Part shown: positions 45,001-48,000 of the stretch, piece by piece
How positions within the stretch are numbered: position 1 is the stretch's first letter
How the letters are laid out: every line of letters begins with the position of its first letter
Origin: Escherichia coli
GTDB lineage: Bacteria; Pseudomonadota; Gammaproteobacteria; Enterobacterales; Enterobacteriaceae
Assembly: GCF_003334765.1 (NCBI RefSeq)
Contig: NZ_QOWT01000030.1
Length of the DNA stretch: 49,226 nucleotides
Reading direction: 5' to 3' (one strand)
Program-made: the position numbers

Positions 45001-48000
45001 AATTCATTGACATGTCCTGTCAATACGTACAGAGCCCTGCCATGCTTGCCAGCACGTAACAATTCCGCCCCCAGTAACCAGCGTGTCCCCTGATTATTCT
45101 CAGGGTTATATGTTAGTATTTTATCAATGAGTATAACGGCATCCTGATGACGCTGTAAATGAACATTCGCCAGAATTGCAGCATAAAGAGCGCAAATGCA
45201 TATGCCAGATGAGCGTGAATATCAATGATGTCAGGAGCATGTCTGGCAAGACGCCTGAGTTTGTTGACGTAATTTGTTTCGTTTATTTCATCACTATCGT
45301 ATGCGTCAAGAGTTTTTTCAAATTCATCCCGAAATGGGCCAAGCCTGGTTTCAGGAAATAAGAAATACCCCTGGTTATTGTTCACTTAAAAGTATAATTT
45401 GTAATTCAAATCCTGAGCCTGTAAAGCGGGGAGTAACATATTCTATTCTGAAGATAATAAAAGTCGTGATGCGATGTATCAAGCCCGGATTGTAATCCCA
45501 GATTAACATAGATCACAAAACAACTTATTCTTCACTAACGTCAAGATAAATATCGTTGTATGCCTTATCACGACTACGAATACCAGCAAGATACAACTGA
45601 CATACGGAAAGATACCACGTTTTTTACTCCCGAAAATAACGCTAAAAAGCTACTTCCCCATCGTTTGTCCTTAGTATTGTCAGCGCCAACAATGTGGGCT
45701 GACATGATAAAGCTGTCTAGGAAATTGTTCGCCTCCTCAGCGGACAATCCAAATGGTGATTGTCTCTGTTAAACGTTTATTTTGAAGGTCACTGAATAAG
45801 GTGATGACGCTGTAGAATTTTTCACGTGCCACAGAATTTTGAACGCTTTCTCTTACAATATTTCAATGTTTCTATCAGTATTCGCCGGAAGAAGTCATCG
45901 ACCAAATCATCCCAGTCGTCTCGCACCACTGACCATTCATGGTTGACATGTGGTGGAAATCCGCTTCTACAGTAACCATTTTTTATTCGCAAAACCGAAC
46001 ACGCCATACGGATAGCTGTTAACTGGCATGCCGAGGCAGTCGTTATTTATATTTAGTTTTGTCAATAATCTTTATTTTTTGTAAAAGGCAAATATAAATT
46101 ATTCTCATTATTGTTTGTATTTGTGTATTGTCTTGCCGGTTAACATGATCGGAGATTAGTAATATGCGAATAACCACTCTGGCTTCCGTAGTCATTCCCT
46201 GTCTCGGATTTTCAGCCAGCAGCATAGCTGCTGCAGAGGATGTGATGATTGTCTCGGCATCCGGCTATGAGAAAAAGCTGACTAACGCAGCCGCCAGTGT
46301 TTCTGTGATTAGCCAGGAGGAATTGCAGTCCAGCCAGTACCACGATCTGGCGGAGGCTCTGAGATCAGTAGAGGGTGTGGATGTTGAAAGTGGTACGGGT
46401 AAAACCGGAGGGCTGGAAATCAGCATCCGAGGAATGCCAGCCAGTTACACGCTGATACTGATTGATGGTGTTCGTCAGGGCGGAAGCAGTGACGTGACTC
46501 CCAACGGTTTTTCTGCCATGAATACCGGGTTCATGCCCCCTCTGGCCGCCATTGAGCGTATTGAGGTTATCAGAGGGCCGATGTCCACACTGTATGGCTC
46601 TGATGCGATGGGCGGTGTGGTGAATATCATTACCAGAAAGAATGCAGACAAATGGCTCTCTTCCGTCAATGCAGGGCTGAATCTGCAGGAAAGCAACAAA
46701 TGGGGTAACAGCAGCCAGTTTAATTTCTGGAGCAGTGGTCCCCTTGTGGATGATTCTGTCAGCCTGCAGGTACGCGGTAGCACACAACAGCGTCAGGGTT
46801 CATCGGTCACATCACTGAGCGATACAGCAGCCACGCGTATTCCTTATCCCACGGAGTCACAGAATTATAATCTTGGTGCACGTCTTGACTGGAAGGCGTC
46901 GGAGCAGGATGTGCTCTGGTTTGATATGGATACCACCCGGCAGCGTTATGATAACCGGGATGGGCAACTGGGGAGTCTGACGGGGGGATATGACCGGACC
47001 CTGCGCTATGAGCGAAACAAAATTTCAGCTGGCTATGATCATACTTTCACCTTCGGAACATGGAAATCGTATCTGAACTGGAACGAGACAGAAAATAAAG
47101 GTCGTGAGCTTGTACGCAGTGTACTGAAGCGCGACAAATGGGGGCTTGCCGGTCAGCCGCGGGAGCTTAAGGAATCGAACCTTATCCTGAATTCATTACT
47201 GCTTACCCCTCTGGGAGAATCTCATCTGGTTACGGTGGGGGGCGAGTTTCAGAGCTCGTCCATGAAAGACGGAGTTGTCCTTGCCAGCACAGGTGAAACT
47301 TTCCGGCAGAAAAGCTGGTCGGTATTTGCTGAGGATGAGTGGCATCTCACGGATGCACTTGCGCTGACTGCGGGCAGCCGCTATGAACATCATGAGCAAT
47401 TCGGGGGACACTTCAGTCCGCGTGCATATCTGGTCTGGGATGTGGCAGATGCCTGGACGCTGAAAGGCGGTGTGACCACGGGATATAAGGCACCCAGAAT
47501 GGGGCAGCTACATAAAGGGATTAGTGGTGTGTCCGGGCAGGGAAAAACAAATCTACTTGGTAACCCCGACCTGAAGCCGGAAGAGAGCGTCAGTTATGAG
47601 GCTGGGGTGTATTACGATAACCCCGCCGGTCTGAATGCCAATGTCACAGGTTTTATGACTGACTTCTCCAACAAGATTGTCTCTTATTCCATAAATGATA
47701 ACACCAATAGCTATGTAAACAGCGGAAAGGCCCGGTTGCACGGTGTGGAATTTGCCGGCACATTGCCGCTGTGGTCAGAGGATGTCACGCTGTCACTGAA
47801 TTACACCTGGACCCGAAGTGAACAACGTGATGGTGATAACAAAGGTGCGCCGCTGAGTTATACCCCTGAACACATGGTGAATGCGAAACTGAACTGGCAG
47901 ATCACCGAAGAGGTGGCATCATGGCTGGGTGCCCGTTATCGCGGGAAAACACCACGTTTCACCCAGAATTATTCGTCACTGAGCGCTGTACAGAAGAAAG

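Follow-up and report, generated by a model that had tools for sequence, protein, structure and literature searches.

The window analysed here, 49,226 nucleotides of Escherichia coli DNA (NCBI RefSeq assembly GCF_003334765.1, contig NZ_QOWT01000030.1), belongs to the type of O-island 43/48, which confers tellurite resistance and adherence, with an aerobactin cluster in addition; strains of O55:H7 and O145:H28 have almost the same island. Near its end lies iha (46164–48254, plus strand), which encodes a TonB-dependent catecholate siderophore receptor/adhesin of 696 residues, known as a virulence-associated protein of uropathogenic and Shiga-toxin-producing E. coli. The open reading frame aligns with the NCBIfam model NF010012 over residues 1–696 of 696 (1618 bits; cut-off 924), and the promoter together with the first 237 bp of the gene matches, at 100% identity, RefSeq E. 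coli sequence that bears the annotation “bifunctional siderophore receptor/adhesin Iha.” A putative ribosome-binding site, CGGAGA (46150–46155, plus), is invariant in all aligned relatives, and TerD is encoded directly downstream of iha. RefSeq genomes also annotate a 60-residue “hypothetical protein” antisense to this region (46043–46225, minus), spanning the iha promoter, the Fur box described below, and the start codon; this gene call is probably spurious.

The aerobactin operon, iucABCD-iutA, occupies 15897–23846 on the minus strand, with the receptor gene iutA last (15897–18095). The window thus carries iutA and iha about 28 kb apart, two siderophore receptors on one island, as an earlier note on this sequence had stated. 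Divergent from iucA is a shiF-like MFS transporter gene (23982–25175, plus), and the two genes share a Fur box at 23889–23907 (minus strand, GATAATGAGAATCATTATT; plus strand, AATAATGATTCTCATTATC). This box lies 43–61 nt upstream of the annotated iucA start and is identical to the one given for iucA and shiF in strain CFT073 (PMC7157518 Table S5B). Adjoining iutA, a single 695-residue open reading frame (13571–15658, minus) matches both the IS21 transposase IstA (residues 2–244) and the helper ATPase IstB (residues 453–684), and looks like a fused or truncated IS21.

Further along the window in either direction are several other features. A type I restriction-modification system spans 3656–12996 (hsdM, 3656–6094; hsdS, 6088–7434; hsdR, 9185–12280), with a DarT/DarG DNA ADP-ribosyltransferase toxin-antitoxin pair (7446–8102, 8087–9166) inserted between hsdS and hsdR. 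The minus-strand region 27249–33299 encodes an ibrA/ibrB-like pair (PAPS-reductase-like and IbrB-like proteins), a regulator of the PerC family, and a large protein that resembles AAA/SF1 helicases and is weakly similar to anti-phage helicases.

A third Fur-box cluster, and a strong one, is found at 37384–37414 (GATAGAGATAATCATTATC; 17 of 19 consensus positions, 19.5 bits with the weight matrix introduced below), with overlapping registers at 37384 and 37396. A hypothetical open reading frame without NCBIfam or Pfam match (37500–37970, plus) begins some 90–115 bp downstream, and beyond it are a CPBP-protease fragment, IS1, an alpha/beta-hydrolase fragment, and a glycosyltransferase gene (39324–40448, minus). 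The locus may be what is left of an iron-regulated cluster of the microcin or salmochelin type. Equivalence with the “c3597 transposase” Fur ChIP peak of CFT073 was considered and rejected, since BLAST finds no similarity and a separate box, a near-consensus GCAAATGATAATCATTGTC at NC_004431.1:3440895–3440913, belongs to that peak. The CFT073 box is flanked by IS remnants, and no intact gene is annotated close to it; the amplitude of its peak, 3620, is among the strongest of the island Fur ChIP peaks in that strain (PMC7157518).

A candidate Fur operator upstream of iha

The earlier note had drawn attention to a 19-mer upstream of iha sharing its core and 15 of 19 positions with the iucA Fur box. 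The resemblance is confirmed: 46094–46112 (plus strand, ATAAATTATTCTCATTATT; minus strand, AATAATGAGAATAATTTAT) and 23889–23907 are identical at 15 of 19 positions, and the common core, TTCTCATTAT, occurs exactly twice in the window (23897–23906 and 46102–46111), against an expectation of 0.16. Scored against the 19-bp Fur consensus GATAATGATAATCATTATC, the iha 19-mer matches at 12 positions on the plus strand and 13 on the minus strand. Because it reaches only these values, it is missed when the whole window is searched for the consensus with three or fewer mismatches; that search returns only the iucA box and a site within the third cluster, 37390–37408.

A position weight matrix was then built from the Fur boxes listed for CFT073-specific genes (Banerjee et al., PMC7157518 Table S5B). 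The matrix was made both with and without the iucA box to avoid circularity, the latter version comprising 12 CFT073 boxes. With iucA left out, two overlapping registers emerge upstream of iha: 46088–46106 (plus, GCAAATATAAATTATTCTC, 12 of 19 consensus positions) at 14.0 bits, and the 19-mer 46094–46112 (minus) at 13.9 bits, the score of the latter ranging from 13.9 to 15.0 bits. These registers rank sixth and seventh among 98,416 window positions, and only the iucA box and the 37384–37414 cluster score higher. From 46113 to the end of iha there is no site among the 20 best matches of the window. By consensus and by matrix, therefore, the iha site resembles an Enterobacteriaceae Fur box, more weakly than the listed CFT073 boxes: these training sites score 16.4–26 bits, and the iha site, at about 14–15 bits, falls below all of them. 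It is a moderate, comparatively weak Fur box, and its right half (AATTTAT) is degenerate.

Footprinted Fur operators of E. coli usually consist of overlapping sites spaced 6 bp apart (Chen et al., PMC2189734). Since the two iha registers, starting at 46088 (plus) and 46094 (minus) and both near 14 bits, are offset by exactly 6 bp and so match these operators, the candidate operator is taken as the 25 bp from 46088 to 46112, with no strand assigned. The Fur box of the earlier note is thus present, but the likely operator begins at 46088, 6 bp upstream of the start given there. The AT-rich element lies 52–76 nt upstream of the iha ATG, and we infer that it, rather than neighbouring DNA, is contacted by Fur.

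The 19-mer could be a chance resemblance in AT-rich DNA, with Fur acting on iha through other promoter sequence or indirectly. The upstream region is 68–76% A+T, a consensus match of 13 of 19 is modest, and 36 positions in the window score at least 13. Nor is iha among the 17 genes with a motif listed in Table S5B of PMC7157518, an absence that fits the sub-threshold score of its site. Base composition, however, seldom reproduces the match. In 5000 dinucleotide-preserving shuffles of the 124–300 bp upstream of iha, at least 15 of 19 identities to the iucA box, on either strand, appeared in 0.2–0.4%, a matrix score of at least 13.9 bits in 1.2–1.8%, and two matches of at least 13.5 bits in 0.1–0.3%. 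For a random 19-mer the probability of reaching 13.9 bits is 4e-6 given the base composition of the window and 6e-5 given the local one. The likeness of the iha and iucA 19-mers thus exceeds what regional AT-richness gives, and within 250 bp upstream of iha the second-best matrix match reaches only 8.2 bits. When the persistence and greater strength of the site in distant relatives, and direct binding of Fur within 25 bp of it in ChIP-seq (PMC7157518), are considered as well, chance resemblance appears quite improbable.

A built-in promoter scan predicts no plus-strand sigma-70 promoter at iha, and a simple hexamer score yields three weak, mutually exclusive candidates on that strand, at 6.5–7.2 bits, none of them convincing. 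The first (46059–46087, 7.2 bits) joins a −35 TTGTCA at 46059 to a −10 TAAAAG at 46082 across a 17-bp spacer, an arrangement in which the box would span about −6 to +19. In the second (6.7 bits), with a −35 TTTATT at 46071 and a −10 TAAATT at 46095–46100, the box lies over the −10 hexamer. In the third (46102–46131, 6.5 bits), a −35 TTCTCA at 46102 is followed after an 18-bp spacer by a −10 TATTGT at 46126, and the box would cover the −35 region. The promoter element that Fur would occlude at iha is a presumptive one; since the box overlaps the core promoter in all three candidates, occlusion is plausible whichever is used.

Conservation among Iha-related receptors

Among 5,426 complete E. coli genomes, 1,532 carry this stretch of the iha promoter, mostly identical to that of the window or different at one to three bases. 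More divergent sequences are provided by an alignment of eight promoters: that of the window, four diverged iha alleles of chromosomal or plasmid location, two chicken-isolate alleles, and one plasmid-borne receptor. Over the promoter and gene start, DNA identity to the window is 93.8% for one chromosomal allele, about 86% for the pO113 plasmid type, 79.9% and 77.8% for the two chicken-isolate alleles, and 68% for the plasmid-borne TonB-dependent receptor of AHB6. Ten of the 11 positions of the block AAT(T/C)ATTCTCA (46097–46107, plus) are invariant in all eight promoters, and the flanks of the block diverge or cannot be aligned. Also kept in the alignment are the TTG of the −35 hexamer of the first promoter candidate and a TG.AAA motif.

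Matrix scans of the 250 bp upstream of each related gene place the top match at the homologous position, −50 to −82 from the ATG, in the diverged iha alleles and in the AHB6 receptor; the candidate Fur box is thus conserved at the orthologous site. A plasmid receptor of Enterobacter soli (pENTAS01), at 61% protein identity, has a box at −72 to −90, 22 bp further upstream than in the E. coli sequences compared with it, whose boxes lie at −50 to −76. The core ATTCTCA is common to the boxes of APEC102026, VTB97379v, AHB6, Enterobacter soli, and the window. Boxes stronger than that of the window, matching the consensus at 15–16 of 19 positions, occur in three of the five relatives at greater distance: the chicken isolate E. 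coli VTB97379v and both plasmid receptors. In the register of the earlier note, GATAATGAGAATGATTTGC (15 of 19, 18.3 bits) is found both in the VTB97379v iha allele and in the Enterobacter soli receptor; in the second register, the AHB6 receptor has AATAATGATAATTATTCTC (16 of 19, 22.5 bits). The box of the APEC102026 iha allele scores 14 of 19 and 15.7 bits. Relative to the three stronger boxes, that of the widespread iha allele represented in the window is weaker and spread over two registers.

It might be supposed that the block is kept mainly as a core promoter element, either the −35 TTCTCA or the −10 TAAATT, and that its likeness to a Fur box is secondary. Candidate promoter hexamers do lie inside the box, and AT-rich promoter elements and Fur hexamers look alike. 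Yet the substitutions in the three relatives with stronger boxes have gone toward the Fur consensus, not toward TTGACA or TATAAT. Moreover, the two roles are compatible, Fur boxes normally overlapping promoter elements (PMC2189734), and there is very little likelihood that promoter function is the main cause of conservation. The retention of the site in position, together with the stronger boxes of distant relatives, argues that a Fur site has been inherited here, and that the element is more than a promoter hexamer or an AT-tract arisen by chance. These sequence comparisons suggest that the Fur site is ancestral to the family of Iha-related receptors.

Breaks in the promoter are seen in individual strains. 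In the blood isolate E. coli B36 (NZ_LR130545.1) the match to the iha promoter ends at window position 46104, inside the Fur box, and an IS66-family element, ISEc23, lies beyond the break; the insertion would part the upstream half of the box and the promoter from iha. In strain Ecol_745 the break falls elsewhere, at window position 46074.

Fur repression of iha and its coordination with aerobactin

The iha promoter of CFT073 differs from that of the window at one base in 210 (46089, C in the window and T in CFT073), and the second register reads GTAAAT... in that strain. In CFT073 the gene (c3610) belongs to the direct Fur regulon of 57 operons, with a Fur ChIP-seq summit of 649 at NC_004431.1:3450905 (Banerjee et al. 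2020, mBio, PMC7157518). The CFT073 start codon is at 3450866, which puts the summit at window position 46125, 25 bp downstream of the centre of the box. This offset is within ordinary ChIP-seq resolution, and the same resolution does not single out 46088–46112. RNA-seq fold changes of iha relative to wild type are 181 in the fur mutant, 1 in the ryhB mutant, and 362 in the fur ryhB double mutant (PMC7157518). For aerobactin the corresponding data are a summit of 341 at iucA and a rise of 111- to 223-fold for the five genes iucABCD-iutA in the fur mutant (PMC7157518). Repression of iha by iron through Fur is also stated in a review citing Rashid, Tarr & Moseley 2006 (Microb Pathog 41:207), a paper whose title names Fur/iron regulation of iha. 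The strings “iha,” “c3610,” and “iucA” do not occur in the supplements of a Fur ChIP-exo pan-regulon study of CFT073, 042, and Sakai (PMC10164565), and no iha-labelled entry is found among those listed in start-site tables for EDL933 (PMC10469882).

The expression data also bear on whether another protein that binds AT-tracts, such as H-NS or a different member of the Fur family, might bind the element and act as the chief regulator of iha. This DNA was acquired horizontally and is AT-rich, and reviews mention that short-chain fatty acids affect iha expression. Nevertheless, a 181-fold derepression in a fur single mutant and a Fur ChIP peak at the promoter (PMC7157518) leave little room for such a regulator, and no feature of the sequence points specifically to one; the proposal is scarcely tenable.

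Taken as a whole, the evidence is best explained if 46088–46112 serves as the operator through which Fe2+-Fur represses the iha promoter in the classical manner, which is very probably the case. When iron is sufficient, Fe2+-Fur dimers would bind the AT-rich element. Two dimers would probably occupy the overlapping 19-bp sites, which with an offset of 6 bp would place them on opposite faces of the helix. Bound Fur would keep RNA polymerase from a weak sigma-70 promoter overlapping the box or lying directly against it; under iron scarcity Fur would leave and iha would be transcribed. The iucABCD-iutA operon, 22 kb away, would answer the same signal by way of a stronger Fur box of its own, and both receptors would appear together.

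A variant of this scheme would give meaning to the weakness of the site. In the widespread iha allele the two-register operator may be degenerate by design, weaker than the boxes of its relatives and of iucA, and so set an iron threshold unlike that of aerobactin or admit other inputs, for example short-chain fatty acids. This seems unlikely; were it so, the two receptors of the island would be induced in graded order and not strictly together.

The earlier note had regarded the similarity of the two boxes as a sign of coordinated iron regulation of the two receptors. Coordinated control itself is borne out in CFT073 by the Fur ChIP and derepression data cited above, but nothing in it is particular to the island or to this pair of sites. 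The iha 19-mer matches the CFT073 c1220 box at 15 of 19 positions, as closely as it does the iucA box, and the chuA box at 14 of 19. The idea that the iha and iucA boxes are tied by a special evolutionary link, or by duplication, was rejected on these grounds. Their coordination is that of shared membership in the global Fur regulon, not of an island circuit or a box-specific link.

Control of iha by Fur was already known, both mutant expression and Fur binding having been published for CFT073, and the finding is an ordinary one. The published regulation concerns the same gene and, but for one base, the same promoter (Banerjee et al. 2020, PMC7157518). The addition made here is small: a specific 25-bp candidate operator with comparative support, in a promoter for which the 2020 genome-wide study gave no motif. 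It has little importance beyond annotation.

The gene after which iha is named, irgA of Vibrio cholerae, encodes an iron-repressed TonB-dependent receptor and, like iha, has a Fur-box-like dyad in its promoter. Expression of irgA additionally needs a divergently encoded LysR-type activator, IrgB; upstream of iha no LysR-type gene is annotated, and 43000–46163 holds only short hypothetical open reading frames. Another close comparison is with iucA. Both iucA and iha are preceded by a 19-bp Fur box upstream of an iron-uptake gene, with a left half of the GATAATGAGAAT type and the same core. The iucA box is closer to the consensus (17 of 19 positions and 24–25 bits, vs 13 of 19 and about 14–15 bits for iha) and serves two divergent genes, iucA and shiF. 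Both iucA and iha are members of CFT073's direct Fur regulon (PMC7157518).
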